Positions 3,201-62,533 of a stretch of DNA of 64,000 bases are shown in pieces. Below the pieces are notes generated by a model. It was not told the DNA's origin. It ran no database searches and saw only the letters and a list, made by a program, of their open reading frames with translations. Origin of the DNA: an uncultured Chloroflexia bacterium (GTDB lineage: Bacteria; Chloroflexota; Limnocylindria; Limnocylindrales; CSP1-4); assembly GCA_963734995.1 (NCBI GenBank), contig CAVTJD010000010.1, forward strand, positions 81,103 to 145,102. The letters run 5' to 3'. Positions within the stretch are counted from its first letter, which is position 1, and every line of letters starts with the position of its first letter. The position numbers and the translations under genes are program-made.

Positions 3201-3289
3201 GCGCCAGAATCTAGCCGATGCCGGGCCCGAGCCGAGGCGCCGCGCCGCCGTCCGTTCGTGTCCCGCCCTGCCGCCCCCCAGCCCACGCC

Positions 3290-3410
3290 CCGCCCACGCC
3301 CCGCCCGCCTGTCGCCCATCCTCCTGCCCGCTCCGCTTGGCCCGCCCGCCTGTCGCCCATCCTCCTGCCCGCTCCGGCTTGGTCCGCCCCACCTGTCGCC
3401 CACACCTGAT
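3290..3410. repeat. Direct repeat, about 41 bp in two full copies plus a degenerate third (cccgcccgcctgtcgcccatcctcctgcccgctccg...)
   Basis: Read directly from the sequence between the VIT gene start and the ocd gene. Confidence 0.8.
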
Positions 3411-3454
3411 CAGCCACCCACCCCACGGGTGCGATCCGGCGGCGCCATCAGGCG

Positions 3455-3700
3455 ACCTGCGCAGGTACCCATGGGGTGCATGCAACGGCCGCGACCAAGC
3501 GTCGGACCTGCGCAGATACCCGTGGTGTGGGTCCTCGCGCAGCTGTCGACCCACCACACCTGCGCCACGACCCACCCGGTGGGTACCTGAGCAGGTTGAC
3601 GGCCCTCACCCGGCGATCCGCGCCCGGCTGACCCGTCGGACCTGCGCATGTCCACCGTTCGTACCCACCCCATGGGTACCTGATCGAGTCGCGCGGTGAG
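3455..3700. repeat. Cluster of at least 5 copies, in both orientations, of an element of about 22 bp (GACCTGCGCAGGTACCCATGGG) made of two mini-palindromes, CCTGCGCAGG and CCCATGGG
   Basis: Copies were seen at about 3462, 3511, 3577 (inverted), 3642 (variant) and 3672 (inverted). Confidence 0.75.
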
Positions 3701-3885
3701 CGGGGGTCGCGCGGTGAGCGGGGGTCGCGGGGCGAGCGGGGGTCGCGCGGTGAGCGGGGGTCGCGCGGTGAGCGGGGGTCGCGGGGCGAGCGGGGGTCGC
3801 GGGACGACCGGCGTGAGGGACGACCGGCGGTGAGCGGGTCGCGAGGCGAAGGGGTCGCGAGGCGAGCGGGGGTCGCGATGACCGG
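3691..3885. repeat. 18-bp tandem repeat (gcgcggtgagcgggggtc) in about 9–10 copies, with degenerate copies at the 3' end
   Basis: This is a head-to-tail array with no unique spacers, so it is not CRISPR-like. It lies about 90 bp upstream of the ocd start. Confidence 0.85.
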
Positions 3886-3976
3886 GGGTCCTCGACCACC
3901 GGCGGCTGACCAGGTCGATCAGGCATTCGACCGATGCCCCCGCGCGACCTCGCACGTGACCGATAGACTGCGCCTC

Positions 3977-5008: not shown

Positions 5009-5974
5009 ATGTCGCGTGATCGCAATCTGTTGCTGGGCTCCATCAACGCCCTCGCCGCCGCTTCGCTGTTCGGGACGCTCGGGCCGCTTTCACGCTTCGG
5101 AGCCGAGGCCGGCGTCGGCGGGCTCGCATTCACCGCGTGGCGTGGCCTGCTGGGTGTCGCGGCCCTGGGGCTGCTGATCGCCGGGCGGGGTGCCATCCGG
5201 ACCGCGATCACCTCGATCGGCGCCCTCGACGCGAGAGGGCGGGCGTCGCTGGCGGTGGCCGCTCTGATGGGTCTCACGCTCAATGCGTCGATGTTCAGCG
5301 CCTTCGGGCGGATCCCGATCGCGCTCGCCCTGATGTTGTTCTACACCTACCCGGCGGGCGTGGCGGTGGTCGACGTCGCGCTGGGCCGCGAGCGCATCAC
5401 CGCGCCCCGCCTGGCGGCGCTCGCGCTGTCATCGGTGGGGGTGATCCTCGTGCTCGCCGGAACGATGGATTCGGCCGAAGGGCTGGCGGCCGACGCGCTC
5501 GGGATCATGCTCGGGCTGTGCGCCGCCGCCAGCCAGGTGGTGTTCGTCACCATCAGCCGGAACGGCTACCGATCGGTGCCGGCAGATGCCGCCACGCTCG
5601 TGATCCTGGCCGCATCGGCGGTCGGGGCGTCCGTGATCGGCATCGCGATCGGGCAGGCCGACGATCTGGCGGTGCCGTTGCGGAACACGTCCACGTGGCC
5701 GACCCTGCTCGCGGGTGGTGTGCTCGCCGGTGGCGTGTCGTCGCTGCTGTTCCTGCGCGCCATCCGGTTCATCGGCGGAACCCGGACCGGGATCCTGATG
5801 CTGCTCGAGCCTGTGGTCGGCGTGTTCCTGGCGGCCGTGTGGCTGGGCGAGTCGCTGGTCCCGGTCCAGCTGCTCGGCGGAGCGCTGGTGCTCGCCGGCG
5901 CGGCCGTCCTGCAGCTGCGCTCGGCGCCCGAGCTCGAGCCGGTGGTGGAGGCCGGCGCGGGGCCGATGCTGTAG
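5009..5974 (+). CDS. DMT-superfamily (EamA-like) permease
   Basis: The hydrophobicity pattern suggests about 10 TM segments with two EamA-like halves. Confidence 0.7.
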   Translation: MSRDRNLLLGSINALAAASLFGTLGPLSRFGAEAGVGGLAFTAWRGLLGVAALGLLIAGRGAIRTAITSIGALDARGRASLAVAALMGLTLNASMFSAFGRIPIALALMLFYTYPAGVAVVDVALGRERITAPRLAALALSSVGVILVLAGTMDSAEGLAADALGIMLGLCAAASQVVFVTISRNGYRSVPADAATLVILAASAVGASVIGIAIGQADDLAVPLRNTSTWPTLLAGGVLAGGVSSLLFLRAIRFIGGTRTGILMLLEPVVGVFLAAVWLGESLVPVQLLGGALVLAGAAVLQLRSAPELEPVVEAGAGPML

Positions 5975-6219
5975 CGGGACTGACGGCGCGGGTCGCGCTC
6001 GTGCGGGGCCGATGGCGCCAACAGGACGGATGGCACGAGGCCGATACCCGGGCGGGCTACGAGGTTGTCGCGGTCCGGGCCGGGCCTCCGACGGGCCGCG
6101 GCCGTCGCAGCGGCGCTCACCCAGCGCACACCCGGCGTTCACCCGGCGCGAGACGATGCGCACGGCCCTACCATTGGTGCGGGCGTCACGTGGTGTCGCT
6201 CGATGGAGGAGGCGCGTCG

Positions 6220-6954: not shown

Positions 6955-7299
6955 TCACACGTCCTCGATCACCTCGAGCGGGCCGTCGGGCACATCGATC
7001 GTCACCCGTCCATCGACGACCTCGACCGGGTAGACGGCCAGCGGCAGCTCCGCCGGCGGATCGAGCGGCTCGCCGTCGGTCAGGTCGAAGCGTGACAGGT
7101 GGAGCGCGCAGGTCAGCGTGCCCGCCGTCAGGAACCCGCGGTCGAGCTCGAAGTACTCGTGCGAGCAGGTGCCTTGAAGCGCGTGGAAGTCACCGTTGAC
7201 GTGGACGACGAGGACGGGATCGGTCCTGTCGACCCAGACCATCCGCATCTCGCCCTCGTCGAGCTCATCGACTCCGAGCAGGTCGATCCGGCGACTCAC
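6955..7299 (-). CDS. Rieske [2Fe-2S] domain protein
   Basis: The CSHEY...CALH (CxH..CxxH) cluster-binding boxes are present. It lies directly downstream of sufD on the same strand. A GTG start at 7299 avoids overlap with sufD. Confidence 0.65.
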   Translation of the reverse strand: MSRRIDLLGVDELDEGEMRMVWVDRTDPVLVVHVNGDFHALQGTCSHEYFELDRGFLTAGTLTCALHLSRFDLTDGEPLDPPAELPLAVYPVEVVDGRVTIDVPDGPLEVIEDV

Positions 7300-10390: not shown

Positions 10391-11026
10391 ATGCAAGTCA
10401 TCATCGCGATCGTTGCGCTGCTGGTCGGCGCGGCGTTCTGTTTCGGCGGCTTCAGGTTCTTCCTCCTGCTGCTGCCGCTGTACATGTTCGTGGGCGGCTT
10501 CAGCGTGGGCACGGACGCGATCACCGCCCTGTTCGGCGACGGGACGTTCGCCACGGTGCTGAGCTGGGTCATCGGCCTGGTGGTAGCGCTCGTGTTCGCC
10601 GTCGTGTCCTATCTGTACTACTACCTCGCCGTGGCGCTGATGGGCGGCATGGTCGGCTACGCGCTGGGTGCCGGAGCATGGGGCCTCGTCGGCAACGAGT
10701 ACGGTGCGATCGCGTTCGTGATCGGCATCGTGGTGGGCGCCATCGCGGCCATCATCGTGCTCGCGCTCAACGTGCCCAAGTACCTGGTGATCGTGGTGAC
10801 GGCGCTGGGCGGCGCCGCGACGATCCTGGCCGGCTGGTTCGTCCTGATCGGCACCATCCCGACCGACGCGATCCACTGGACCACCATCGGCGCCAAGATC
10901 GCCGACAGCTGGTTCTACCTGCTCGTGTGGGCGGCGATCGCGGCCGTGGGCATGGTTGCCCAGATCCAGTCGACGTCGATCGGCTCCGACCGCTACCAGC
11001 CCGAACGCGCGAACTACCGCTACTAG
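10391..11026 (+). CDS. Hypothetical polytopic membrane protein
   Basis: There are six or more hydrophobic segments. The start is at MQVIIAIVALLVG, in frame with ORF 10283..11026. Confidence 0.5.
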   Translation: MQVIIAIVALLVGAAFCFGGFRFFLLLLPLYMFVGGFSVGTDAITALFGDGTFATVLSWVIGLVVALVFAVVSYLYYYLAVALMGGMVGYALGAGAWGLVGNEYGAIAFVIGIVVGAIAAIIVLALNVPKYLVIVVTALGGAATILAGWFVLIGTIPTDAIHWTTIGAKIADSWFYLLVWAAIAAVGMVAQIQSTSIGSDRYQPERANYRY

Positions 11027-19637: not shown

Positions 19638-19804
19638 GGCCAAGACGGCCTCGAGTGGCAGCCGGACGCCCGGGTCCCAGTGGGGGCCAGACCCACGCGA
19701 GAGCGGGCGCAGCGGCGTGAGCGTCGGTTCGGTGCCGGTCGTGGCGTGGACGTGCGCCACGGGGCTGTTCTCCGCATCGGTCAGCACGAGGTCCGAACCG
19801 CTGC

Positions 19805-19955
19805 CGGGCGCGCCGGGCAGGGCGAGCGCCCCGGGCTGAACGGACGCGTCGGGCACGCCGGGCTGACGGGCGACGGCGCGCCGGGCTGGACGGGCGCGCC
19901 GGGCTGGACGGGCGCGCCGGGCAGGGCGGGCGCCCCGGGCAGGGCGGACACCGGC
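19805..19955. repeat. 18-bp tandem repeats (ggcgcgccgggctggacg / gggcgccccgggcaggg variants) between the TauE-like gene and cysC
   Basis: Read directly. In the cysC frame it translates to the RPARRARPARRA low-complexity stretch. Confidence 0.7.
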
Positions 19956-22983: not shown

Positions 22984-24251
22984 TGCCCGGCGAGCTCCTC
23001 CGATTCGCCACGGCCGGGTCCGTCGACGATGGCAAGAGCACGCTCATCGGTCGCCTGCTGTACGACTCCAAGTCGCTGTTCATCGATCAGCTGGCGGCGG
23101 TCGAGCAGGTCAGCCGCGACCGGGGCGACGACTACACCGATCTCGCGCTGCTGACCGACGGGCTCCGCGCTGAGCGGGAGCAGGGCATCACGATCGACGT
23201 CGCCTACCGGTACTTCGCGACACCCCGGCGGAAGTTCATCATCGCCGACACGCCCGGGCACACGCAGTACACCCGGAACATGGTGACCGGGGCCTCGACC
23301 GCCGACGTGGCGCTGATCCTGCTCGATGCGCGCAAGGGGATCACCGAGCAGAGCCGCCGGCACGCGTTCCTGGCCACGTTGCTGGGCGTGCCCCACCTCG
23401 TGATCTGCGTCAACAAGATGGACCTGGTCGACTTCTCCGAGGCGCGGTTCGACGAGATCCGCGGGGAGTTCGAGGAGTTCGCGACGCGGCTGCGCGTCCG
23501 CGACATGACCTTCATCCCGATCTCGGCGCTTCTGGGCGACAACGTCGTGACCCGCTCCGACCGGACGCCGTGGTACGACGGCTCGCCGCTCCTCAGCCAC
23601 CTCGAGCGGCTGCACGTCGCGAGCGACCGCAACTTCATCGACGTCCGGTTCCCGGTGCAGTACGTGGTTCGGCCCCAGTCGTTCGAGGTGATCGACTATC
23701 GCGGCTACGCGGGCACCGTGGCCTCGGGTGTGCTCAAGCCGGGCGACCAGGTGCTCGCGCTGCCCAGCGGCATGGAGACCACGATCGCGTCCATCGACAC
23801 CGCCGACGGCCCGGTGGCCGAGGCATTCCCGCCGATGGCGGTCACGGTCACCCTCACCGACGACATCGACCTCAGCCGCGGCGACATGCTGTGCCGCCCG
23901 CACAACGTGCCCAACGTTGCCCAGGACATCGACGCCCAGATCTGCTGGATGGATGAGAGCGCGCCGCTCACGGTCGGGCGTAAGTACGCGATCAAGCACA
24001 CCACCCGCTGGGCCAGGGTCCTGGTCAAGGCGCTCGAGTACCGCATCGACGTGAACACGCTCCACCGCGACGAGCAGGCGACCGAGCTCAGCCTCAACGA
24101 GATCGGGCGCGTTCAGCTGCGCTCGACGCAGCCGTTGTTCGTGGATGCCTACGTCGAGAACCGGCAGACCGGCGCGTTCATCCTGGCCGACGAGAGCACC
24201 AACCGGACGGTCGCGGCGGGCATGATCGGACGCCAGCCTGGGGGTTACTGA
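22983..24251 (+). CDS. cysN: Sulfate adenylyltransferase subunit 1 (CysN GTPase)
   Basis: The G1 motif GSVDDGKST, G3 DTPGH and G4 NKMD are present. Its ATG overlaps the cysD stop (ATGA). Confidence 0.9.
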   Translation: MPGELLRFATAGSVDDGKSTLIGRLLYDSKSLFIDQLAAVEQVSRDRGDDYTDLALLTDGLRAEREQGITIDVAYRYFATPRRKFIIADTPGHTQYTRNMVTGASTADVALILLDARKGITEQSRRHAFLATLLGVPHLVICVNKMDLVDFSEARFDEIRGEFEEFATRLRVRDMTFIPISALLGDNVVTRSDRTPWYDGSPLLSHLERLHVASDRNFIDVRFPVQYVVRPQSFEVIDYRGYAGTVASGVLKPGDQVLALPSGMETTIASIDTADGPVAEAFPPMAVTVTLTDDIDLSRGDMLCRPHNVPNVAQDIDAQICWMDESAPLTVGRKYAIKHTTRWARVLVKALEYRIDVNTLHRDEQATELSLNEIGRVQLRSTQPLFVDAYVENRQTGAFILADESTNRTVAAGMIGRQPGGY

Positions 24252-24340
24252 GCGGATCCCCGCGCCTGGGGCCGCCAGCCGGCGGCCTACTGAGCGGATC
24301 CCCGCGCCTGGGGCGCCCGACCCGGCTGGGCGCCGCAACG
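24235..24340. repeat. Tandem duplication (unit about 45 bp, 2 copies) that includes the last codons and stop codon of cysN (…tactgagcggatccccgcgcctgggg…)
   Basis: Read directly. Confidence 0.8.
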
Positions 24341-24371: not shown

Positions 24372-25649
24372 CTACAGCCGGGGCCGCACCGCCTTCCGGA
24401 GCGTGCGGTGCCGGGCAGTCGCCGGCAGCGACGTGCGGCGCAGCCCGGCGAACTCACGGTGGGCACGCAGCGCGGCGGCGAACGCGGCCACGAACGCCCC
24501 GTCGCCGGCCGCCAGCGGGTCGAAGCCCGGTTCCCACCACAGGCCGACCACGCGCAGCGTGCTCGATGCCCGGTCGAACCGCGGCTCGATCCGACCCACG
24601 AACCGGTCCCCGTACAGGACCGGCAGGACGTAGTAGCCGAAGCGGCGCTTCGCGGCCGGGACGTACACCTCCCACCGGTAGTCGAAGCCCCATAGCCTCG
24701 AGAGCAGATCCCGATCCCAGACCAGCGGGTCGAGCGGCGCCACGAACGTCACGCCCGGCTCCTGGCCCCCCGGGCGAGGCGGCGCCGCCGTTTCCGCCTC
24801 GGCCGCCACCTCGATCCCGGCGGCGTCGAGCAGCGGCAGCTCGTCGGTCACCACGAATCTGGGGCCACGCAGCCCCTCGACCTCGATCGCGGTGATCTGG
24901 CCCGACTCGACCAGGCCGTCGTGCACGACCCGCCGCTCGGGCGCCTTGCCCAGGCCCATCCATAGCGTGTAGTCACCGGTCGCCCCGAGCAGGCCGTTCC
25001 CCCGGTATCGCGACAGCAGCTTGTGTCGCAGCTGCTCCTCGGCCCGGACGTCGCGGGCCAGCAGGTCCGACGGAAACAATCGCTCGGTGAGGTCGTACAC
25101 CCGGCGATTGCCCTCACGCCGGGCGATCGCGAGGATGCCGGCCTCGGCCAGCGCCTCGAGCAGCGCCCGGACCTGGTTGGTCGGCCGCCAGTACCAGTCG
25201 ATCGCCGCGCGCGGCTCGACATCGGTGGACGACAGCGGCCCGTCGGCACGGATCCGGTCGAGGAGCTCCTCAACGAGCGGCGCATGCTCATCGAACGCCC
25301 CGCCGCGGTGCTCCTCGTGGGCCCGGTCCCAGGTGATCCGGTACCACGGCAGCTCGGCGGTGGGCACGAGCGACATCTGCTTGTTGTACGTCTCGTACAG
25401 GACACGGTCGCCGTACAGCAGCTGATCGGTCCAGGAACGCCGGTAGCCGTCGATCCGCGCCAGCAGGGTCAGGTCGTGGTTCCGGCCGGCCACCTCGAGC
25501 GGATCGAACTGCAGCGATCCCAGGCGGTCGACGACCCGCATCACCGACGCCGGCTCGGCGGCCAGTGAGCGCGGCGGAGCGAGCAGGTGGCGCCGGACGA
25601 GGAAGCGCCGCGCAGTCGCGGCGGAGATCCGGCGTGCGGGCGGGCTCAC
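24372..25649 (-). CDS. Winged-helix DNA-binding domain protein (DUF1006/YcaQ/AlkZ-like family)
   Basis: Its length and motifs (…GNRRVYDL…, PRFVVTDELPLLD, FGYYVLPVLYGDRFVGRIE) resemble the HTH_42 family. Confidence 0.55.
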   Translation of the reverse strand: MSPPARRISAATARRFLVRRHLLAPPRSLAAEPASVMRVVDRLGSLQFDPLEVAGRNHDLTLLARIDGYRRSWTDQLLYGDRVLYETYNKQMSLVPTAELPWYRITWDRAHEEHRGGAFDEHAPLVEELLDRIRADGPLSSTDVEPRAAIDWYWRPTNQVRALLEALAEAGILAIARREGNRRVYDLTERLFPSDLLARDVRAEEQLRHKLLSRYRGNGLLGATGDYTLWMGLGKAPERRVVHDGLVESGQITAIEVEGLRGPRFVVTDELPLLDAAGIEVAAEAETAAPPRPGGQEPGVTFVAPLDPLVWDRDLLSRLWGFDYRWEVYVPAAKRRFGYYVLPVLYGDRFVGRIEPRFDRASSTLRVVGLWWEPGFDPLAAGDGAFVAAFAAALRAHREFAGLRRTSLPATARHRTLRKAVRPRL

Positions 25650-25716
25650 GAGCGGGATCGTACGGGCTGCACGCGCCGGATCGTGTCAGGTTCCCGGCGT
25701 GGCAGCCGTCCGCCGG

Positions 25717-27873
25717 TCAGGCGTCCGAGGGCTGCGCGACGGACGAAGCCGACCGCGTCGCCACGTGATCGCCCGGATCACCCTTATCGTCGCTGGAAGA
25801 GGCGTCGATCTCGATCATCTCGATCACCAGGCGCCAGGTGGCCGAGATGATGGCGGCGATCGGGACCACCAGGAACATGCCCAGGATGCCGGCCACCGCG
25901 CCACCGATGGGCACCGCCAGCAGCACCACCGCGGGATGAAGGCTGAGCGCCTTGCCGTAGACGATGGGTGCCACGCCGCTCCCCTGGATCAGGTTGAACA
26001 CGACGGTGTACCCGGCCATGATCACGATGTCGGTGGTCGTACCGGCCGCCACGGCCACCAGGAACGCCAGGGCGGTGGCCACGAACGAGCCGATGTACGG
26101 GATGAACCCGCCAAAGAAGCTGAGGACGCCGATCGGGACCGCGAGCGGCAGCCCGAGGATGGCCATGATCAGCCAGCTCGTGACCCCGCCGAACAGGGAG
26201 ATCGCGGCCGTCCCCGCCATGTAGCCGGACAGCACGCTCACCGCCCGCTCCCCCGCCCGGTCCAGGCGCTCGCGTCGGGCCCCGTCCACGCGGCCCGTGA
26301 ACCCGTGCCACGCGGCCGACCCGTCGCGCAGGAAGAAGAACGTCAGCAGCAGGAACATGATCGTCCCGAGGGCGAACAGCAGCAGCGTCGCGAGCCACCC
26401 GCCGACATCGATCGTCATCGTGGACACGACCTCGGCCACCGCGTCCTCCAGCCAGCTGATGTCGAGGTCCGCGGCCCCGCGGATCGCCTCGTCAGCGATC
26501 TCCCGCAGCGGCCGCAACGTCCATGCGATCGAGGCGGCGAACGCGAACACCACCAGCACGGCGCCGCCGAGGGTGGTGGTCGCGGCGGCGGCCGATCGTG
26601 ACCAGCCGGCCCGCACCAGCCACTCCACCACGGGCAGCACGGTCGCGGCGATCACGATCGCGAGCACCACGGGCACGACGATGACCGGCAGCAGGACGAT
26701 GATCTGGACGGTCACCCATCCGACGCCCACGACGACCAGCCCGCGCCAGCTCCACTGCGCCAGCCGGTCGAGCCATGGAGGCACGCCCCAGGCGTCGGTC
26801 GTCGCCCGGTCGGCGGCCGGCCCCAGCCCGAGCGCGACAACGATCGACTTCATGACGGCGAGCAGGAACACGATCACCGGCAGCCCGGCCACCAGCCCCA
26901 GCACCCCGAACAACGCCGCCGAGGTCGGGATCGCAAGCGCCACGATGATCGGGCTGACATCGACCTCGGCGCCCAGCGAGGTGCCAGCGAGCAGGCGAGC
27001 CGCGACGATCGACGTCGCGGCCGCGGCCACCAGCACGATGACGGCGGCCGGCGTGCTCACGAGCGCCAGCGAGACGAGCACCAGGGTCACGGTCATGGCG
27101 ATCGCGCCCAGGTAGGGCACGAACCCGGCCAGGAACACCATGGCCGTGAGCGCTGCCACGTGCGGCACCCCCAGGAGCGTGAGCACGATCCCCATGGCGA
27201 TGGCATCGACCGCGGCCAGGACCGCGGTGCGGCGGACGTACCGGCTCACCCGGATCAGCCCCAGCGAGGCGCTCTCGGTCACGGTCGCGGCCTGCCACTC
27301 GGACAGCAGGTTCATCGCCCAGTCCCAACCCCGATCGCCGTCCTGGAGTAGGAAGAACACCAGGAAGAATGCGAGCACGAGCACCGTGCCCAGGGTGATC
27401 GCCGTCTCCCCCAGCGCGGCGGGATTGATCGAGACGAGCTCCCTGACCGAGTCAGCGAGCGAGCTCAGGGCGTCGATCGCCCAGCCCGGCGCGCCGAGCG
27501 ACGCCAGCTGCGCCGCGATGTCACGGATGCCCGCCACGGCGGCCTGCACGATCTCGCGCAGGGACGGGGCGATCGCGATCACCAGCAGCACCGTCACCAG
27601 GACGAGCGTCAGCGACGCGGTGCCGACCGCGATCGCCGCCGCGATCGAACGCGACAGCCCGCGTGCGCGAAGGCCCTGGACCGTCGGCGTCATGACCACC
27701 GCCACGAGCACGGACAGCAGGACCGACGCCGTCACCGTGACCAGCATCACGGCAACGGCCGCGATGACCAGGGCCATCGCGGCCGTCACGAGCAGGCGCC
27801 AGGCAACACTCGCCAGCCGGTCCAGCCAGACCGGCACCAGGCGTTGCGGAGGCGTGGGCGGCACCGAGCTCAT
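25717..27873 (-). CDS. AI-2E-family (PerM/UPF0118) transporter, tandemly duplicated and fused (two AI-2E modules, 718 aa)
   Basis: There are two repeats of an 8-TM-like pattern, each with the FxPYxG/FIPYIG signature (AGFVPYLG; GGFIPYIG). Confidence 0.75.
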   Translation of the reverse strand: MSSVPPTPPQRLVPVWLDRLASVAWRLLVTAAMALVIAAVAVMLVTVTASVLLSVLVAVVMTPTVQGLRARGLSRSIAAAIAVGTASLTLVLVTVLLVIAIAPSLREIVQAAVAGIRDIAAQLASLGAPGWAIDALSSLADSVRELVSINPAALGETAITLGTVLVLAFFLVFFLLQDGDRGWDWAMNLLSEWQAATVTESASLGLIRVSRYVRRTAVLAAVDAIAMGIVLTLLGVPHVAALTAMVFLAGFVPYLGAIAMTVTLVLVSLALVSTPAAVIVLVAAAATSIVAARLLAGTSLGAEVDVSPIIVALAIPTSAALFGVLGLVAGLPVIVFLLAVMKSIVVALGLGPAADRATTDAWGVPPWLDRLAQWSWRGLVVVGVGWVTVQIIVLLPVIVVPVVLAIVIAATVLPVVEWLVRAGWSRSAAAATTTLGGAVLVVFAFAASIAWTLRPLREIADEAIRGAADLDISWLEDAVAEVVSTMTIDVGGWLATLLLFALGTIMFLLLTFFFLRDGSAAWHGFTGRVDGARRERLDRAGERAVSVLSGYMAGTAAISLFGGVTSWLIMAILGLPLAVPIGVLSFFGGFIPYIGSFVATALAFLVAVAAGTTTDIVIMAGYTVVFNLIQGSGVAPIVYGKALSLHPAVVLLAVPIGGAVAGILGMFLVVPIAAIISATWRLVIEMIEIDASSSDDKGDPGDHVATRSASSVAQPSDA

Positions 27874-28774: not shown

Positions 28775-29317
28775 ATCATCTCCCACGACGATCGCTCGGC
28801 CACCATCGATTCTCTCGTCGCCGGCTTCGCACAGCTGATGCAGCGGCTGTCCGGCGCCCGTGCCTCGGAATTCCTCGAGATCGACGTGACCATGCCCCAG
28901 GCCAAGGTCCTGTATCTGCTTGCGGCCGCCGGGGAGCTGCGGATGTCCGACCTGGTCGCGCAGCTGGGCGTGTCGCTGTCGACCGTATCCGGGCTCGTCG
29001 ACAAGGTGGTCGATCACGGGCTGGCGGCCCGCCACGATGACCCCACCGACCGGCGGCACGTCGTGGTCTCACTGACCCCCGCCGGCCGAGCGATCCTCGA
29101 TCAATTCCATGAGCTCAACGCCTCACAGCTTCGCGATCTGCTCAGGCTCCTTGACGACGACGGTCTCAGCTGCGTCAACGCCGCGGTTGCGGCGCTGAGC
29201 AGGGCTGCCGACCGGTTCGTAGCCGGTTCCGGGGTCGCCACCACACCGTCAATCCATCCGGGCGCCGATGCCACCCGGCCTTCCTCGCCTCCCATCGACC
29301 GAAAGGATCCTGCATGA
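28775..29317 (+). CDS. MarR-family transcriptional regulator
   Basis: It has a wHTH (LYLLAAAGELRMSDLVAQLGVSLSTVSGLVDKV...DPTDRRHVVVSLTPAG). The start is uncertain: the first in-frame ATG is at 28838, and upstream there are only non-canonical ATC/CTG codons after a GAAGGAA RBS. Its stop overlaps the RND start. Confidence 0.6.
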   Translation: MISHDDRSATIDSLVAGFAQLMQRLSGARASEFLEIDVTMPQAKVLYLLAAAGELRMSDLVAQLGVSLSTVSGLVDKVVDHGLAARHDDPTDRRHVVVSLTPAGRAILDQFHELNASQLRDLLRLLDDDGLSCVNAAVAALSRAADRFVAGSGVATTPSIHPGADATRPSSPPIDRKDPA

Positions 29318-32300
29318 GCCGCCTCTCCGAGCTCGCGGTCGCCAAGCGCAGCGTCACCCTCCTGCTGGCCGCCGCCCTGTTCATCGCCGGCATCGCCGCC
29401 TGGGGCAACCTCAAGCAGGAGCTCCTGCCCGACATCGACTTCCCGGTGATCACGGTGGTCGCGTCGCTGCCCGGCGCAGGCGCGACCGATGTCGCCGACC
29501 AGGTGACCAAGCCGATCGAGCAGGCGATCTCGGGCGTGCCTCGACTCGAGAACCTGCAGTCGACGTCGGCGAACTCGATCGCGCTCGTGGTCGCCCAGTT
29601 CTCATACGGCACCGACGTCAAGGAGACGCGGAGCACCATCGAGCAGAACCTGCAGAGCGCCGGGCTGCCCAGCACGGTCTCGCCACAGGTGAGCGCCCTC
29701 AACATCAACGCCTCGCCCGTGATCATCGCGTCGGTGGCGGCGACGTCGGAGAACGGCCTCACGGACGCCGCGCGGGTCGCCGAAACCGACATCGTGCCCG
29801 CGCTGCTCGCGCTCGATGGCGTCGCCAGCGTGGACCTGACGGGCGGCGAGGTGCAGCGGGTCGCGATCACGCTCGACCCGGCCAGGCTGGCCGAGGCGGG
29901 CATCACCGAGCAGCAGATCACCGGCGTGCTCACGGCCAACAACCTGACGATCCCGTCGGGCGAGGTCCGGAGCGACGGCTCGAAGACGTCCGTCTCGACG
30001 ATCGCGGCGATCGGCAGCATCGATGAGATCAAGGGCCTCGTGGTGGGGGTGAAGGCACCTGCGGCCACGACTCCCGGCGCGGGCGGCGCCACCACCCCCG
30101 GCTCATCGGCCGCGCCGGACGCGTCCGCGCTGCCGACGACGCCCGCCGTCCCGGTGCCGGTCACGATCGGAGACCTCGGCACCGTCGCCCTCGAGGGCGT
30201 GCCGACCACCGGTTACGCGCGGACGGGCACGCCCGAGACGGGTGTCAACCCGGCCCTCTCGCTGTCGGTGTCCAAGACCTCCAACGCCAACACCGTCGAG
30301 GTCGCGGACGAGGTGACCGCCAAGCTCGACGAGCTCGGCCAGCAGCACAGCGACTCGGTGTCGATCCTGGTCGTCTCCGACCTGTCCTCGTTCATCAAGG
30401 AATCGCGCGACGGGCTGCTCCGCGAGGGTGGCACCGGCGCCCTGTTCGCCATCCTGACGATCTTCCTGTTCCTGTTCAGCCTGCGCTCGACGCTGGTTGC
30501 CGCGGCCAGCATCCCGCTGTCCCTCGTGACAGCGCTGGTGATCATGCAGCTCGCCGGGATCAGCCTCAACATCATGACCCTGGGCGGTCTAGCGGTCGCG
30601 GTGGGCCGGGTCGTGGACGACGCGATCGTCGTGCTCGAGAACATCTACCGCCACCGGGCGATGGGCGAGGATCGCCTGACGGCATCCATCCGTGGTCCGC
30701 GCGAGGTCGCGGGCGCGATCACCGCCGCGACCGTCACGACCGTGGGTGTGTTCCTGCCACTCGGGTTCGTGGGTGGCCTGGTCAGCCAGTTCTTCCTGCC
30801 ATTTGCGCTGACCGTGACCTTCGCGCTCGTCGCCTCGCTGGTGTGCGCGCTGACGGTGGTTCCGGTGCTCGCGTACCTGCTGATCCACAAGGTCCCGGCC
30901 AACGTGGACGCGGACGGCGAGCCACGGAACTCGATCTGGATTCGCCTCTACACGCCAACGATCACGGCCGTCCTGCGCAACCGATGGACGAAGCTGAGCG
31001 TGCTCGGGGTGGCGAGCGTGCTGTTCGTGGGCGCCACGCTGATCGCGCCGTTGCTGCCCACACAGTTCATCAACGCCGGCGGCGAGAAGCTGGTGTCCGT
31101 CACCATCGCGCCACCCGCCGGGACGGCGTCCGATGCGGTGCTCCAGCAGGCGATCCAGGCCGAGGACATCCTGCTCACGGACCCGAAGGTGCTGCTCGTC
31201 CAGACCTCGATCCCCGGGGAGGGTGACGCGGGGTTCCAGACGATCGTCGCCGCGATGTCCGGCCAGCCGGCCAACAGCGCCCGCATGACGGTTCGGCTCG
31301 ACGACAGCGTCGACCTGACCGCCTACTCGAAGCACCTCTCCGACGAGCTCGCCCCGATCCGAACCGACGGCTACGACGTGGCCGTCGCGGAAGCGGCCGG
31401 CTTCAGCTCCAACAACCTCAACGTCATCGTCTCCAGCGACGATCCCGCCGCCGTATCCGCGGCGAACGACGTCGTCCTCAACTCGCTCGCCGATAACCCG
31501 GACCTGCTCAACCTCAAGTCCGATCTTGCCGAGGGCACACCCGAGATCCAGGTCAGGCCCGACCCGAACAAGAGCATCGGCGTCGGGCTCACCGCCGCGC
31601 AGGTCGCGCAGCAGGTCCGCAGCGCCCTGGTGGGCAGCGTCGCGACCCGCGTCCAGCTGGCCGGCCAGAACGGCCCCGTCGACGTGTTCGTGCAGCTCGA
31701 TCCGACGCAGGTCACCTCGGTCGAGTCGCTGCAGCAGCTCCCGGTCGGGACCGTGGCCAAGGTCCCGCTCGGACGGATCGCCACCGTGGAGCAGGTCGCC
31801 GTCCAGGGCTCCATCACGCGGATCGACCAGTCGCCGGCCGCCTCGATCTCGGCCGAGATCGTGAGCGTCGATACCGGCCGGGTCAGCCAGGACGTCCAGC
31901 AGCGGATCGACGCCATGTACGCGGACGGATCGATCCCTGCCGGCGTGGACGTGCGGCTGGCCGGTGTCACCCAGCAGATGAACGAGGCCTTCGGCGGGCT
32001 GTTCTTCTCGATGGCCGTCGCGATGCTCGTCGTCTACGTCGCGATGGTGCTGACGTTCAACTCGCTGATCACGCCGTTCATCATCATGTTCAGCCTGCCG
32101 CTGGCCGCGATCGGCGCGCTGCCGGCCCTGCTGATCACCGACCGTGCCATTGGCGTGAGCGCCCTGATCGGCTTCCTGATGCTGATCGGGATCGTGGTGA
32201 CGAACGCGATCGTGCTGCTCGATCTGGTCGAACGGCTGCGCTCGCAGGGGATGTCGACCAACGACGCCCTGATCGAGGGCGGCCGAACCCGCGTCCGGCC

Positions 32301-32544
32301 GATCCTGATGACCGCGATCGCGACGATCCTCGCGCTGATCCCGCTCGCCGCGGGGTTGAGCCAGGGCTCGATCATCGCGGCCGAGCTGGGGACGGTCGTC
32401 ATCGGGGGCCTGTTCAGCTCGACGTTCCTGACCCTGATCGTGGTGCCCGTGGTCTACTCGCTGGTCGACGGTGTACGGCAGCGGTTCTCCGGTGGTCCCC
32501 GGACGGAGCCGGCACCGGCGGCACCCGAGGCCGAGTTGGCCTGA
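29314..32544 (+). CDS. RND-family efflux transporter permease (AcrB-like, 12 TM with two periplasmic loops)
   Basis: It is 1076 aa with conserved RND blocks (ALVIMQLAGISLNIMTLGGLAVAVGRVVDDAIVVLENI; LIGFLMLIGIVVTNAIVLLD). Confidence 0.9.
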   Translation: MSRLSELAVAKRSVTLLLAAALFIAGIAAWGNLKQELLPDIDFPVITVVASLPGAGATDVADQVTKPIEQAISGVPRLENLQSTSANSIALVVAQFSYGTDVKETRSTIEQNLQSAGLPSTVSPQVSALNINASPVIIASVAATSENGLTDAARVAETDIVPALLALDGVASVDLTGGEVQRVAITLDPARLAEAGITEQQITGVLTANNLTIPSGEVRSDGSKTSVSTIAAIGSIDEIKGLVVGVKAPAATTPGAGGATTPGSSAAPDASALPTTPAVPVPVTIGDLGTVALEGVPTTGYARTGTPETGVNPALSLSVSKTSNANTVEVADEVTAKLDELGQQHSDSVSILVVSDLSSFIKESRDGLLREGGTGALFAILTIFLFLFSLRSTLVAAASIPLSLVTALVIMQLAGISLNIMTLGGLAVAVGRVVDDAIVVLENIYRHRAMGEDRLTASIRGPREVAGAITAATVTTVGVFLPLGFVGGLVSQFFLPFALTVTFALVASLVCALTVVPVLAYLLIHKVPANVDADGEPRNSIWIRLYTPTITAVLRNRWTKLSVLGVASVLFVGATLIAPLLPTQFINAGGEKLVSVTIAPPAGTASDAVLQQAIQAEDILLTDPKVLLVQTSIPGEGDAGFQTIVAAMSGQPANSARMTVRLDDSVDLTAYSKHLSDELAPIRTDGYDVAVAEAAGFSSNNLNVIVSSDDPAAVSAANDVVLNSLADNPDLLNLKSDLAEGTPEIQVRPDPNKSIGVGLTAAQVAQQVRSALVGSVATRVQLAGQNGPVDVFVQLDPTQVTSVESLQQLPVGTVAKVPLGRIATVEQVAVQGSITRIDQSPAASISAEIVSVDTGRVSQDVQQRIDAMYADGSIPAGVDVRLAGVTQQMNEAFGGLFFSMAVAMLVVYVAMVLTFNSLITPFIIMFSLPLAAIGALPALLITDRAIGVSALIGFLMLIGIVVTNAIVLLDLVERLRSQGMSTNDALIEGGRTRVRPILMTAIATILALIPLAAGLSQGSIIAAELGTVVIGGLFSSTFLTLIVVPVVYSLVDGVRQRFSGGPRTEPAPAAPEAELA

Positions 32545-32660
32545 CGGAGGCCGAGTTGGCCTGACCGAGGGCGAGTGGACCTGACGGAGGCCGAGTTGGC
32601 CTGACGGAGGGCGAGTTGGCCTGACCGCTCGCGGGTCGGTCGTCTGCGAGTCGGTCGTCT
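32524..32660. repeat. 21-bp tandem repeat (gaggccgagttggcctgacgg) in 5 copies, each with a TGA; the first copy is the RND gene terminus. It is followed by a 15-bp repeat in 2 copies (gcgggtcggtcgtct).
   Basis: Read directly. Confidence 0.85.
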
Positions 32661-32756
32661 GCGGGGCAAACGCCGCCACGAAGGACCGCCCGGCCGGCCG
32701 CACATCGAGTCAACGCATGGCACTCTTGCAGACCTGAAGTGAAGGAGGTGAACAGC

Positions 32757-33319: not shown

Positions 33320-33540
33320 GGGCCGTGCCGTTCGGCAGGCTGAGCGCGTTGCGCTTCGATACGTTCGCTGCCGGCGATGGCGAGGAGCGTTGGGCCGTGC
33401 CGTTCGGCAGGCTGAGCGCGCTGCGCGTCCATACGTTCGCTGCCGGCGATGGTGGGGAGCGTTGGGCCGTGCCGTTCGGCAGGCTGAGCGCGCTGCGCGT
33501 CCATACGTTCGCTGCCGGCGATGGTGGGGAGGTTTGAGGC
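33320..33540. repeat. 72-bp tandem repeat in 3 copies plus a partial copy (gggccgtgccgttcggcaggctgagcgcg…ccggcgatggtggggagcgtt)
   Basis: Read directly. The period was measured between the copy starts at 33320, 33392 and 33464. Confidence 0.85.
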
Positions 33541-33566
33541 GTGCCGTTGCCGATGTGGTGATGCCG

Positions 33567-33640
33567 CGCGCCTGGCCGATGGTCGCGCCTGGCCGATGGT
33601 CGCGCCTGGCGGATGGTCGCGCTTAGCCGATGGTCAGGAT
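33567..33640. repeat. 17-bp tandem repeat (gatggtcgcgcctggcc) in 4 copies; the last copy supplies the final codons and stop of the phosphotriesterase gene
   Basis: Read directly. Confidence 0.85.
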
Positions 33641-34561
33641 GCGACGCGGGTTGTGGATCGTCAGCTGCTCGATCTCGGCCTCGGACACGCCCGCCTCGCG
33701 CAGCCTCGGCAGGAACGTCGTCTGGAGGTACGTGTACCCGTTGCCCTGGTAGTGGCGGAGCTGGCTGTTGTGGCACACGTCCTGGCTCAGCAGCACCCGA
33801 TCGCCGTGACCGCGGTGGAGCAGCTCGAGCAGAAGATCGACGACACGGCCCTCGCCGTGCTGCTCCATGACCGTGAACGACATGCCCAGGAAGTCGAACT
33901 CGATCGACGCCCCGCGCGAGATCAGCGACAGGTAGTGGTCGAGCACCGGATAGCTGTCCGAGTGGCCGATGACGATGCGTCCGGGGTCGACCCCCTCCTC
34001 CTCGAGGATCGTCAGCTGGGCCGCGCCCACATCCGACATCACGGCATGGGTGATGATCCCGAGCCCGGTCCGGCGCGAGGCGCGCGCCACGGCTCGGAAC
34101 ACGCGCTCCTCGGCGGGTGACACCCACGGCTTGTCCGTCCCGATCTCACCCAGGATCCCGATCCGGATCCCCGTGTCACCCACCCCGACGGTGGCCTCGG
34201 CGACCAGCTCCTCGGCCAGCGAATCGGTCGAGCGGCGGTCGATCAGCGCCTCCTGCGGGTAGTACGCGGTTCGGTACCAGCCACCACCCATGATGACGTG
34301 CAGGCCGGACGTCTCGGCCAGCCTGCGCAGCCAGCCGGGGTTGCGCCCCATGCCCGGCAGGGTCAGGTCGGCCAATGCCGTACCGCCCGCCTCGCGGAAC
34401 AGCCGGAGCTCCTCGGCCATGATCGACTCATCGGCGGTGAGCTCCCAGTAGTCCCAGCGGTTCTGGATGTGCCACAGGGCGATCTGGGTGTGCTCGTGCG
34501 GGAGCGTGAACCCGAGGGCATCGGGCGCCACGGGCCCGAGGACGGTCATGACGTGCGACAT
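33623..34561 (-). CDS. Phosphotriesterase-family protein (amidohydrolase superfamily, PTE/PHP-like)
   Basis: It has the N-terminal metal ligands HEH (TLPHEHTQI), plus GIITHAV and HSDS blocks, at a length typical of PTE homologs. Confidence 0.8.
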   Translation of the reverse strand: MSHVMTVLGPVAPDALGFTLPHEHTQIALWHIQNRWDYWELTADESIMAEELRLFREAGGTALADLTLPGMGRNPGWLRRLAETSGLHVIMGGGWYRTAYYPQEALIDRRSTDSLAEELVAEATVGVGDTGIRIGILGEIGTDKPWVSPAEERVFRAVARASRRTGLGIITHAVMSDVGAAQLTILEEEGVDPGRIVIGHSDSYPVLDHYLSLISRGASIEFDFLGMSFTVMEQHGEGRVVDLLLELLHRGHGDRVLLSQDVCHNSQLRHYQGNGYTYLQTTFLPRLREAGVSEAEIEQLTIHNPRRILTIG

Positions 34562-35631: not shown

Positions 35632-38055
35632 ATGTTCAGCCGCTGGGGAGCCTTTGTCTATCGCCACCGCCGGGTGGTGTTCGCGATCGCACTGCTGGTC
35701 GGGATCACCGGCAGCCTCGCGGCCGGACGCGCCGCCTCCGTGCTGAGCGCGGGGGGCTGGTTCGACCCGGGCTCCCAGTCCGCACAGGTCGCCGATCGCC
35801 TCGCATCAGAGTTCGGTGCCGGCAAGGGCGCGCTCATCGTCCTCTACCGCGGCTCCGACACGGTCGACGCTCGGAGCGCCCAGTTCCAGGCGCAGGTCTC
35901 GGCCTCGCTCGCCGGCCTTGCCAGCGACCACAACGTGGCGGGCGTCGTGGGCTACGCCCAGACCGGGGATGACCGGTTCATCGCCAACAACGGCCACGCC
36001 GCCTACGCCATCGTCAACCTCAATGTCAGCGACGAAGCGTCGGTGCCGCTGCTCGATGGGTTCGAGTCGGAGATCCAGCAGCCGGGCGACGGGATCCAGC
36101 TGCTGCTGGGCGGCTACGCGCCGCTCACCCGGGACTCGGCGGACCAATCCGAGCAGGACCTGATCCAGGCGGAGTCCGTGTCGCTGCCGATCGCCGCGCT
36201 GGTGCTGATCCTGGTGTTCTCGTCGGTTCTGGCCGCGGGCATCCCGCTGCTGGTCGCGCTGATGGCCATCCCGACCACGCTTGCGCTGGTGTACGTCGTG
36301 GGCCAGCAGGTCGAGCTGAGCATCTACGTCCAGAACGTGTCCACGATGCTCGGGCTCGCGCTCGCGATCGACTACTCGCTGTTCATGGTCAGCCGCTTCC
36401 GCGAGGAGCTGCGCAAGGGACGAACCGTCGGCCAGGCGGTCGAGATCGCGGTCGCCACCTCGGGCAAGGCCGTGACGTTCTCCGGCATCGCCGTCGCCAC
36501 GGGGCTCGCCGGCCTGCTCGCATTCAGCTCACCGGCCCTTCGCTCGTTCGGCATCGGCGGGATGCTCACCGTGGCGGCTTCGCTGTTCTTCGCCCTGACG
36601 TTCCTGCCGGCGCTGCTCGGGATGCTCGGCCCACGCGTCAACGCGCTCTCGGTCTCGACGCTCGTCGACGGCGTTCGCTGGCTCCTTCGCCGGCCACCCC
36701 GTATCAGCGACCCGGCGCTGGCCGTGTCCCGCTGGGAGCGCATCGCCAACGCCGTCATGGCACGCCCGATCCTGGTCCTCGTCCCGACCCTCATCGTGCT
36801 CGTGCTCGCCGGCACCCCGTTCTTCGCCCTCAAGCAGGGCATCCCCGATGCATCGACCCTGCCCAACGGACTCGAGAGCCGCGAGGCGGCGGTTGCGCTC
36901 CAGAACGAGTTCGAGCCCGGCACCACCTCACCCATCATCGTGCTCGCCGACGTGACCGGCGACCCTGCGTCCGCGTCCAACGTCCACGCGCTCGCCGCCT
37001 ACGCCGGCCGACTGGCCGCGCTCGAGGGCATCGAGCGCGTCGAGAGCCCGTTCAGCGGCATCCCCAACCCGACCACCGGTCAGCCCCTCGACGCCGATCA
37101 GCTCGCCGCCCTGTACGCGAGCCCCAGGTCGACCTGGCCCGCCGCGCTGGCCGACCTGTGGAGCCGCTACGTGCACGGCTCGACCGTCAGGTTCGATGCC
37201 ATCAGCCCGTTGCCGGCGTCGTCGCCCGAGGGCACGGCCGTCGTGCCGCTCGTCCGCGCGGTCGACCCGGGTCAGGGGATCAGCACCAGCGTTGGCGGGT
37301 TCGCGGCCACCGGCTACGACTTCCTCGAGGCCCAGACCGCGCGCATCCCGATCGCGATCGGGGTCGTGATCATCGCGATGGGCGCGATCCTGTTCCTGCT
37401 GTTCGGCTCGGTCGTGCTGCCGGCCAAGGCCATCCTGATGACGCTGCTCTCGATCAGTGCCTCGTTCGGCGCCCTGGTCTGGATCTTCCAGGAGGGCAAC
37501 CTGTCGAACGTGCTCGGGTTCACCAGCCCCGGGTTCACGATCGCCGGCAACCCGATCATCATGTTCAGCGTCCTGTTCGGCCTGTCGATGGACTACGAGG
37601 TCCTGCTCCTCTCGCGCGTTCAGGAGGCATACCGACGGACGGGCGACAACCGGGCGGCCGTGGCCGAGGGCCTGGCGCGAACGGCCGGGGTGATCACCGG
37701 CGCCGCGATGATCATGGTGTCGGTGTTCGCGGCGTTCGCGCTGGCCCAGACGATCACCATCAAGAGCATCGGGGTGGGCATGGCGATCGCGGTGTTCGTG
37801 GATGCCACGATCGTCCGGGTGCTGCTGGTGCCGGCCACGATGCGGCTGCTGGGCCACTGGAACTGGTGGGCGCCGGCGTTCATGTCCCGGATCGCCGACC
37901 GGGTCGGGTTCAGCCATGTCGAGGACGAGGCGTCGATCCCGACCGATGATCCGGCCGAGGACAGCGCCGCGGGTGAGCATGGCGCCGCGGGTGAGCATGG
38001 CGCCGCGTGGCACGCGCCCGGGCGGAGCCGTGAGGCGAACGCAGACTCGATCTGA
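35632..38055 (+). CDS. MMPL-family (RND superfamily) membrane transporter
   Basis: It has two 6-TM bundles with MMPL-type periplasmic domains (AIDYSLFMVSRFREEL; GLSMDYEVLLLSRVQEAY). The start is set at MFSRWGAF because the ATG at 35566 lies inside the predicted -10. The C-terminus carries an AAGEHG repeat in 2 copies. Confidence 0.85.
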   Translation: MFSRWGAFVYRHRRVVFAIALLVGITGSLAAGRAASVLSAGGWFDPGSQSAQVADRLASEFGAGKGALIVLYRGSDTVDARSAQFQAQVSASLAGLASDHNVAGVVGYAQTGDDRFIANNGHAAYAIVNLNVSDEASVPLLDGFESEIQQPGDGIQLLLGGYAPLTRDSADQSEQDLIQAESVSLPIAALVLILVFSSVLAAGIPLLVALMAIPTTLALVYVVGQQVELSIYVQNVSTMLGLALAIDYSLFMVSRFREELRKGRTVGQAVEIAVATSGKAVTFSGIAVATGLAGLLAFSSPALRSFGIGGMLTVAASLFFALTFLPALLGMLGPRVNALSVSTLVDGVRWLLRRPPRISDPALAVSRWERIANAVMARPILVLVPTLIVLVLAGTPFFALKQGIPDASTLPNGLESREAAVALQNEFEPGTTSPIIVLADVTGDPASASNVHALAAYAGRLAALEGIERVESPFSGIPNPTTGQPLDADQLAALYASPRSTWPAALADLWSRYVHGSTVRFDAISPLPASSPEGTAVVPLVRAVDPGQGISTSVGGFAATGYDFLEAQTARIPIAIGVVIIAMGAILFLLFGSVVLPAKAILMTLLSISASFGALVWIFQEGNLSNVLGFTSPGFTIAGNPIIMFSVLFGLSMDYEVLLLSRVQEAYRRTGDNRAAVAEGLARTAGVITGAAMIMVSVFAAFALAQTITIKSIGVGMAIAVFVDATIVRVLLVPATMRLLGHWNWWAPAFMSRIADRVGFSHVEDEASIPTDDPAEDSAAGEHGAAGEHGAAWHAPGRSREANADSI

Positions 38056-47570: not shown

Positions 47571-48122
47571 ATGGAATGCTCCACGATCTTCGCCGGGTTC
47601 GGGGGCCAGGGCATCCTGTTCGCGGGCAAGGTGCTGGCCGAGGCGGCCATGCTCGAGGGACGCGAGGTCCTGTGGATTCCGTCCTACGGACCGGAGATGC
47701 GGGGCGGCACCGCCTCGTGCACCGTCATCGTCGCCGATCAGCTGATCGGCTCACCGATCGTCGACCGCGCCGATCACGCCGTGGTCCTCAACCCACCGTC
47801 GCTCGCCAAGTACGGCCCGACGGTGGCGCCGGGCGGGCTGCTGGTCGTCAACACCACGCTCATCGAGGCCGAGTCCGGGCGCGACGACGTCGAGGTGCTC
47901 GAGGTGCCGTGCACGGCGCTGGCGCGGCTGGCGGGCGACGACAAGCTGGTGTCGGTGGTGGCGCTGGGGTCGCTCCTCGGGCGCCGATCGTTCCTGCAGC
48001 CGGACAGCGTGCGCCGCGCGCTCGAGGCCGTGATCGGCGCCAAGCATGCCGATCTGCTGACATCGGACCTGGCCGCCTTCGAGCGTGGCTACGAGGCGGG
48101 CCTCGAGGAGGTCATCGCCTAG
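47571..48122 (+). CDS. 2-oxoacid:ferredoxin oxidoreductase gamma subunit
   Basis: It has FAGFGGQGILFAGKVLAEAA and gamma-subunit conservation. Confidence 0.8.
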   Translation: MECSTIFAGFGGQGILFAGKVLAEAAMLEGREVLWIPSYGPEMRGGTASCTVIVADQLIGSPIVDRADHAVVLNPPSLAKYGPTVAPGGLLVVNTTLIEAESGRDDVEVLEVPCTALARLAGDDKLVSVVALGSLLGRRSFLQPDSVRRALEAVIGAKHADLLTSDLAAFERGYEAGLEEVIA

Positions 48123-48203
48123 CACGACTCGCTGCGCGACGCGCTGCGCGACGCGCTGCGCGACGGGCTCGTTGCGACGGCGCCGCGGGGTAGGCTGCAC
48201 GGC

Positions 48204-49229: not shown

Positions 49230-49332
49230 CGCGCGTCGAGACTCGACTCACGCCAGTCGGGCGCGTCGCCGCACGGCCAGTCGAGCGCGTTGAGCGACCC
49301 AGTCGAGCGCGCTGAGCCACCGCCGAAGGAGC

Positions 49333-56304: not shown

Positions 56305-56636
56305 CGAGGGCTGACCCCACTACATCGCTACGGGGCCCGGCACGACGTGGTCTCGCACACCGGGCCGCACCGTCATGCTCGGCGATGCCACCCCGCTGCG
56401 GGAGTGCCGTCGGTCGCGGGCCCCGCATGCCGGTCGGCCGCGAGCCCCTGCCGGACGGCCCGCGCCGGTCGGGACGCGCGACGTGTTGCGGAATCCGGCT
56501 GCGGGGTGGCCCACGCGAGCCTGCGTCGACCGCGCGGGTCGGGTTGGAGCGCGTGGTCTGACCGTTCGGGCACCCGCTGGAGCGTTGTGGTCTGACCCTT
56601 CGGGCCCCTCCTGGGGGATGCGATCTTGTCCGCTGG

Positions 56637-62184: not shown

Positions 62185-62533
62185 CTCAGGGGAGGGGCCT
62201 CGTCAGACGCCCGCGCCGATGCAGATCTGTGGACCAGCAGGCGGACGCGGCGGTCTCACCTCCGCGTCGTCTCAGCATGACCGCCCGGGTCAGGACCGGT
62301 CCCCGGCCGGGTCTCCCTGCGTGAGGTGCCGCAGGTCCCGTGAAGGGGGTCCGATCGGCACTCACGGGCGCCGGCGCCGTCCCTGAGACTGATTGGTGAG
62401 GCGGGTGCCGGAGGGGACGCCCGGCACCCGCCCGAAACGCTGATGACCCTCGCCGGTTGGCGGGGGTTCGTGATTCCCGGCGGGCTTCCCGGCGGGCTGC
62501 CGGGCCGTGCGCGTCGGCCTTGGCCGACGTCGG

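Follow-up and report, generated by a model that had tools for sequence, protein, structure and literature searches.

Short tandem duplications at and beyond gene ends in a 64-kb stretch of a Limnocylindria-type Chloroflexota genome

One of the questions raised by this stretch of DNA, the 64,000 nucleotides of an uncultured bacterium that are here called the window, is why several of its genes run out into a tandem array whose repeat unit holds the last codons of the gene together with its stop codon. Do such arrays belong to a dispersed family of repeats, are they directed to the stop codon, or are they what is left where duplications can be tolerated? The window has a G+C content of 68-73% throughout, and five of its genes are central to the question. 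Pfam identifies a CysN-type GTPase gene that ends at 24251, an AcrB-family RND pump gene (29314-32544), a phosphotriesterase (PTE) gene on the minus strand (33623-34561), an MMPL protein gene that ends at 38055 and the gene for the gamma subunit of a pyruvate/2-oxoacid:ferredoxin oxidoreductase (POR gamma, or 'KorG'; 47571-48122), and in all five agrees with the identities proposed in a first-pass annotation. The names used there implied an actinobacterial or mycobacterial host, which is ruled out by the relatives of the RND pump and by synteny. In a one-genome-per-species collection the nearest relatives of the pump are Candidatus Limnocylindrales and Limnocylindria MAGs of the Chloroflexota, at no more than 88% identity, and the gene order CysD, CysN, RND pump, OsmC, phosphotriesterase and MMPL is kept in Limnocylindria relatives. 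The mycobacterial framing of the locus, with its talk of MIRU and mmpL, is therefore an analogy only. The organism is a Limnocylindria-type Chloroflexota of 71% G+C, and its MMPL and RND genes invite mycobacterial names.

Three genes, those for CysN, the RND pump and the phosphotriesterase, each end in an array whose unit is made of the last three to six codons and the stop. At least four such genes had been counted at first, and the fourth has to be removed, since the POR-gamma array (48125-48169, plus strand, 12 bp x 3.8) begins 2 nt past the TAG and leaves out both the stop and the codons before it. The CysN array (24231-24314, plus strand) sits in a 120-bp spacer facing a convergent gene, and its unit comprises the last six codons (RQPGGY), the TGA at 24249-24251 and 21 nt of downstream sequence, with the second TGA in frame. 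It had been described as a unit of about 45 bp in two copies at 24235-24340; the two copies with their stop are there, and Tandem Repeats Finder (TRF) gives the unit as 42 bp x 2.0 at 90% identity. The two copies differ at 4 nt, all of which fall in one 8-nt coding stretch (24239-24246 versus 24281-24288, giving PGGY versus PAAY), and the remaining 34 nt are identical. Judged from the sequence, this clustering suggests that one complex mutational event produced them, and not a series of separate substitutions.

The RND-pump array (32527-32625, plus strand) has the unit GAGGCCGAGTTGGCCTGACG, which corresponds to the codons for EAELA, a TGA and 2 nt. The TGA is present in each copy, as had been reported, and the period is 20 bp x 4.9 rather than 21 bp x 5. 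Copy 1 holds the stop of the gene itself (32542-32544), and the downstream TGAs cover all three frames. Directly 3' of this array, and 5' of the OsmC gene, is a shorter one of 15 bp x 2.2 (32631-32663, plus strand). The suggestion that changes in copy number could alter C-termini does not carry far here, as each RND copy restores nearly the same EAELA and stop and the effect is largely buffered. The phosphotriesterase array (33567-33635, minus strand) has the 17-bp unit first ascribed to it in four copies (TRF 17 bp x 4.1; TIG codons, TAA and GCGCG), with the stop TAA (33623-33625) only in the copy nearest the gene and CAG in its place in the three downstream copies. In orthologs the end of this protein, NPRRILTIG and stop, is nearly invariant, with LTIG before the stop in 19 of the 21 relatives listed and LSIG or LTIR in the rest; the array in the window has therefore copied TIG and TAA, and the downstream copies lost the stop later. 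For CysN, an end of the form GMIGRxxxx and stop is kept in orthologs and window alike. The C-termini of both proteins match those of array-free orthologs.

Not all of the arrays are of this kind. The convergent spacer between the OsmC gene (plus strand) and the phosphotriesterase gene (minus strand) holds a 72-bp unit x 3.2 (33320-33548), and the C-terminal tail of the MMPL protein holds an in-frame AAGEHG repeat (37964-38007, plus strand, 18 bp x 2.4) that lies 16 codons before the stop and is flanked by an 8-nt microhomology (GCGCCGCG). Both had been seen at first pass, at 33320-33540 and in the mmpL 3' end, and TRF shows both. A 71-codon ORF (33325-33537, plus strand) with a marginal coding score (10.1) lies wholly within the 72-bp array and probably represents no gene, only a side effect of the repeat. 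The array reported at 19805-19955 is also detected by TRF (19803-19947, minus strand, 18 bp x 8, degenerate at 76% identity; ARPARR repeats if translated), but lies at the 5' end, or N-terminal region, of a gene with an APS-kinase domain and not at a stop. Those reported at 56560-56630 and 63880-63990 dwindle to weak pairs under a TRF score of 30, one of 28 nt at 86% identity (56553-56614) and one of 37 nt at 78% identity (63901-63974).

Several arrays had been absent from the first list. Two are strong and share a divergent (5'-5') intergenic region, namely 3277-3402 (41 bp x 2.5) and 3688-3917 (18 bp x 10, with a 54-bp higher-order period). The smaller ones are, besides that at 32631-32663, a 23-bp unit x 2.0 at 25641-25684, between the stop of one minus-strand gene (25717-27837) and the start of another (24372-25649), a 22-bp unit x 2.0 at 49277-49321 in the convergent spacer 49230-49332, and a perfect 12-bp unit x 2.1 at 62474-62498, 36 nt past the stop of the minus-strand gene 62534-63808. 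The divergent spacer as a whole (3201-3976, 776 bp) runs from a rubrerythrin/VIT1 gene (minus strand) to an ornithine-cyclodeaminase-like gene (plus strand) and is repeat-dense, with a 25-nt motif (GACCTGCGCAGGTACCCATGGGGTG) that occurs three times at a spacing of about 51 bp, with inverted partners, beside the 41-bp and 18-bp arrays; it could be a regulator-binding region.

How far does this exceed what such a sequence would contain by chance? TRF returns 91 rows for the window at a score of at least 30, and after merging there are 17 arrays at a score of at least 50, 10 at 75 or above and 7 at 100 or above. Dinucleotide-preserving shuffles yield 2.2 arrays at the lowest of these three levels and 0 at a score of at least 75, and codon-shuffled genes with shuffled spacers yield 3.0 and 0.13, against the 17 and 10 of the window, whose arrays are therefore far beyond chance. 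Expressed as arrays per 10 kb at scores of at least 50 and at least 75, respectively, the load is 2.66 and 1.56 in the window, 1.75 and 0.50 in Limnocylindria relatives, 1.40 and 0.50 in the Thermomicrobium roseum megaplasmid and 0.85 and 0.15 in Rhodococcus jostii pRHL1. At the higher score this puts the window about 3-fold over its relatives and 3- to 10-fold over the T. roseum and R. jostii replicons; a further control, pTT27 of Thermus thermophilus, offers no valid comparison, since it has four arrays and three are of the CRISPR type. Among the relatives the load of non-coding arrays is over-dispersed (p = 5e-4), array load correlates with G+C (rho = 0.51), and the syntenic segment of the window, with 7 non-coding arrays where relatives average 1.6, stands at the top of the range, which indicates that some lineage-specific factor modulates the rate. 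The source genome is repeat-rich, yet within a continuum.

Fundamental to the question is where the arrays lie relative to genes. TRF was run on the window and 74 related loci (1.59 Mb, 1,517 genes, 284 arrays), with gene calls from our own codon-usage caller, and an independent test of placement used the syntenic loci of the relatives with the window left out (1.53 Mb, 267 arrays); the sample is thus some 1.6 Mb round one syntenic region, in which orthologous arrays of sister species are not fully independent. In the independent test 18 arrays overlap a stop codon where random placement predicts 9.4 (4 of 1000 simulations reach 18), but when the null bars arrays wholly inside genes the expectation becomes 20.4, and the two-fold excess vanishes. 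The arrays are consequently not 'anchored at stop codons', as they had been called. What the same loci do show is a surplus of wholly intergenic arrays (76 observed, 24.8 expected), a deficit of arrays wholly inside genes (170 observed, 218 expected) and, with gene interiors excluded, a marked shortage at start codons (2 observed, 22.1 expected), the last of which may be partly an artefact of the caller's choice of starts. The difference between convergent spacers and divergent ones is independent of exact gene starts. With the window included there are 1.20 arrays per kb in convergent spacers, 0.47 in co-directional and 0.31 in divergent ones, and about 0.12 in coding sequence; with the window left out, convergent spacers still exceed divergent ones per bp by about 4-fold (p = 2.5e-6).

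The periods of the arrays differ by location in a similar manner, being divisible by three in 153 of 174 coding arrays, 11 of 23 that overlap a stop and 39 of 83 intergenic ones. In 13 of 24 stop-overlapping arrays the stop is in the first unit; in 8 it is in a later unit, and half of these 8 have in-frame periods and are repeats in a coding tail. The pattern is one of exclusion from gene bodies and starts with a preference for the 3' side, and there is no attraction to the stop codon. The association with gene 3' ends that the first-pass annotation had put up for statistical testing is borne out as this preference for the 3' side and for convergent spacers, and fails at the stop itself. A survey of short tandem repeats in 117,861 genomes likewise places bacterial and archaeal repeats preferentially downstream of gene ends (PMC12699852).

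The relatives also reveal how local the arrays are. An all-against-all k-mer comparison of the 284 array consensi finds no window unit common to different sites, and nearly all of the strong k-mer matches link coding arrays that are orthologous between sister species, or neighbouring arrays of one locus. When each unit of the window was searched by blastn, in the window itself and in about 1.9 Mb from relatives, the only hits were same-site copies in the short-read contigs L001 and L002. With units unrelated between sites and no copies elsewhere, the arrays are therefore young and local. At the corresponding loci the window arrays are absent from all sampled relatives, even at 88% protein identity. 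One pair of arrays behaves differently: in L044 two separate arrays (5798-6024 and 7117-7278) have the same 61-bp unit, the only dispersed tandem element, or MIRU-like behaviour, seen in 1.6 Mb.

Relatives have arrays of their own in comparable positions. L003 and L004 carry a 24-bp array across the MMPL stop, unrelated repeats follow the phosphotriesterase and OsmC genes in many species, and MMPL C-terminal tails are hypervariable among orthologs. The CysN end has been duplicated with its stop independently in L007 (18 bp x 4.3, LPGGF and stop) and L075 (26-27 bp x 3.2, IGRTHIGG and stop), so that with the window the count comes to 3 among about 20 species. When metagenome contigs were scanned with a degenerate pattern, 28 further CysN 3' ends were recovered, about 14 of them Limnocylindria-like, and not one of the 28 is duplicated. 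At about 2 in 33 outside the window the recurrence is not significant and a CysN-end hotspot is not adopted here; as a hint of a local hotspot the sequences are suggestive. The genome-wide process of slippage or duplication first proposed thus keeps its core, a recurrent and genome-wide-looking formation of short tandem duplications that takes in gene termini with their stops, in relatives as well, and loses its anchoring to stops.

The RND orthologs show a further site of variation, within the gene. Nine of them (L073, L006, L007, L039, L042, L036, L049, L046 and L041) have a hypervariable repeat at about residues 255-300 (locus about 10755-10910), mostly in frame and with a unit that differs per species; in L042 the unit is 17 bp and the gene call is truncated there. 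The window's own pump has no repeat at about residues 255-300 at a TRF score of at least 30. The RND gene of L039 (10001-13320) and the MMPL gene of L006 (15794-20250) are broken into several ORFs, which may be frameshifts or pseudogenes in MAG assemblies.

The explanation that we consider best, and hold to be probable, is that the arrays are locus-specific tandem duplications of minisatellite type (12-72 bp) that arise by slippage or microhomology and are then filtered by selection. Duplications would arise anywhere in the 71% G+C genome, either by replication slippage or by microhomology-mediated template switching between short direct repeats. The edges of the arrays fit such an origin, in that perfect arrays with fewer than three copies end in a partial extra copy with a median of about 4-5 nt, for example GCGCCGCG at the MMPL repeat; this evidence comes from 18 arrays, and selection by TRF score favours such edges somewhat. 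The fate of a duplication would then depend on where it falls. Within genes in-frame units alone would survive, across start codons and promoters duplications would be purged, and 3' of genes, above all between convergent genes, they would be tolerated. A duplication that spans a start codon would create a decoy start or an N-terminal extension, and one that spans a stop would leave the full reading frame and stop in the first copy and send the extra copies into non-coding DNA downstream. Some units would hold terminal codons and a stop because a duplication of that sort is neutral for the protein. Slippage and selective filter alike are what we infer; the reality, sites and periods of the arrays, the unrelatedness of their units, their absence from relatives and the preserved native C-terminus are what is observed.

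Secondary structure is a property of one array more than of the class. As RNA (32522-32630, plus strand) the RND array folds at -58.8 kcal/mol against -42.1 in shuffles (z = -5.2), with a small hairpin, AGGCC-GAGUU-GGCCU, that overlaps the UGA once per unit. Six arrays were folded, the 72-bp one on both strands and hence in seven folds altogether; the other five are of no unusual stability, with z between -1.1 and +0.4. No site from a consensus terminator scan coincides with an array, and Rfam at the gathering threshold has no matches across the whole window. A hairpin or terminator basis for the arrays is rejected, since the RND array alone folds unusually well and no terminators lie at arrays.

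Could the process instead be aimed at gene ends? Duplications might originate preferentially at or just past stops, rather than merely survive there, through fork stalling, through conflict between replication and transcription in termination zones or at convergent ends, or through slippage induced by hairpins. The roughly 4-fold greater density of arrays in convergent than in divergent spacers speaks for such a targeted mutational mechanism, as do the independent hits on the CysN end in the window, L007 and L075 and the hairpin unit and stable fold of the RND array (z = -5.2). It is nevertheless unlikely, given that stop overlap is at expectation once gene interiors are excluded (18 against 20.4), that five of six folded arrays have no unusual structure (z -1.1 to +0.4), that arrays have no terminator-like sites, that strong arrays also occupy a divergent promoter region (3277-3917) and coding sequence, and that about 14 further CysN ends are all free of duplication. 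Correspondingly doubtful is the larger picture in which some Limnocylindria lineages, that of the window among them, have an unusually high rate of 12-72-bp duplication that prefers termination zones or convergent ends and keeps rewriting gene 3' ends, although a 3'-biased process of high rate would, if real, account both for the hypervariable C-terminal tails of RND and MMPL proteins and for the duplication of the CysN end in three species. Selection could also be imagined to keep the arrays for a function, as stem-loops or stabilisers at mRNA 3' ends, as backup stops or as spacers that tune downstream expression. The TGAs in all three frames and the stable fold of the RND array, together with the in-frame second stop of CysN, would suit such a role; such maintenance by selection is very unlikely all the same, with not one window array conserved among the relatives, however close (up to 88% protein identity), with unit sequences and lengths unrelated to one another, and with most arrays devoid of a structure signal and Rfam silent.

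The remaining two alternatives concern what kind of sequence the arrays are. A dispersed mobile family, MIRU- or REP-like, that inserts at gene boundaries is hardly credible. Short tandem units beside stop codons give it a superficial likeness, but units from different sites are unrelated in sequence, no further copy of any of them turns up in the window or in relatives, and they hold each gene's own terminal codons, hence derive from local sequence; moreover the host belongs to the Chloroflexota, and for MIRUs the insertion site described is the start codon, with a -4 overlap (PMC12548453). That the arrays are assembly artefacts, with repeats expanded or collapsed in the MAG, is highly improbable, even though the window and most of its relatives are metagenome-assembled and some relatives have frameshifted genes. 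An exact-protein look-up with OsmC led to two Logan short-read contigs from other runs that are 100% identical to the window over 32527-32663 and also over the first 72-bp unit, and both stop inside the 72-bp array, as is expected of short-read assemblies, which break at repeats. Copies of an array also carry distinguishing substitutions, and the same class of array occurs in MAGs of many projects. With two independent assemblies matching base for base, the RND-region arrays (32527-32663) at least are not assembly artefacts. Variation between strains was sought in the same manner. The RND array was found, identical, in only two other samples (L001 and L002), exact-protein look-ups with the phosphotriesterase (two candidate starts), CysN, POR gamma and the gene at 49333 gave no matches, and neither did an exact 30-mer scan of metagenomes for copy-number variants.

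If locus-specific duplication followed by selection is the correct explanation, the locus offers a clean example of selection shaping where tandem duplications persist, and stop-spanning duplications would form a protein-neutral class, one that marks where genes end although nothing directs it there. In practice, strains of this uncultured soil Chloroflexota lineage could be told apart by their arrays. The arrays also carry a warning for annotation, in that short ORFs and 'second stops' in such arrays, of which the 71-codon ORF is an instance, are by-products.

How, then, do the arrays relate to systems that are already known? MIRUs are a dispersed family with units of about 46-101 bp and a shared consensus, and are not known outside Mycobacterium. 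According to a 2025 review they seem to be mobile, and their insertions fall on start codons, with a -4 overlap and translational coupling (PMC12548453). The arrays of the window have in common with them a potential as typing markers, and the label 'MIRU-like' first attached to them otherwise falls away: each unit is distinct, derived from a local gene end, without copies elsewhere and mostly shorter, with lengths of 12, 15, 17, 18, 20, 22, 23, 42 and 72 bp of which only the last is in the MIRU range; no window unit is common to separate sites; arrays avoid starts (2 against 22.1) instead of inserting, with a small coupled ORF, at them or between operon genes, the stop-containing ones lying in convergent or long spacers; and the host is a member of the Limnocylindria, in the Chloroflexota, and not Mycobacterium. 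REP and BIME elements have the same preference for gene 3' ends and for spacers between convergent genes, but REPs are dispersed palindromic families, whereas the arrays here are undispersed and one of six folded has notable hairpin potential. Unlike a CRISPR array, in which unique spacers of similar length part the conserved repeats, the copies in the window are contiguous, without spacers, and across the whole window nothing reaches the gathering score of a known structured RNA in Rfam. A parallel in composition is found in the Beggiatoaceae, where intergenic TAACTGA direct repeats reuse one heptamer motif genome-wide (PMC4679880); these too are tandem, intergenic and have stop codons in the unit, in contrast to which the window units are unrelated in sequence and locus-specific. 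What defines a VNTR is strain polymorphism in copy number; for the arrays of the window, the variation seen is presence or absence between species, and the two other samples are identical over the RND array. The arrays resemble bacterial VNTR or minisatellite loci, which slipped-strand mispairing generates, in having at least two head-to-tail copies of a unit of at least 10 bp, beyond chance by TRF and shuffles, with units here of 12-72 bp. Like such loci they gather in non-coding DNA, more so on the 3' side of genes, have mostly in-frame periods within genes and microhomology at the edges, and turn over rapidly between species; the load of arrays in the window, above that of relatives and of two control replicons, sets them apart. 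The arrays are thus best filed as ordinary tandem duplication of minisatellite type in an uncultured soil Chloroflexota, and they point to neither a new element nor a new mechanism.
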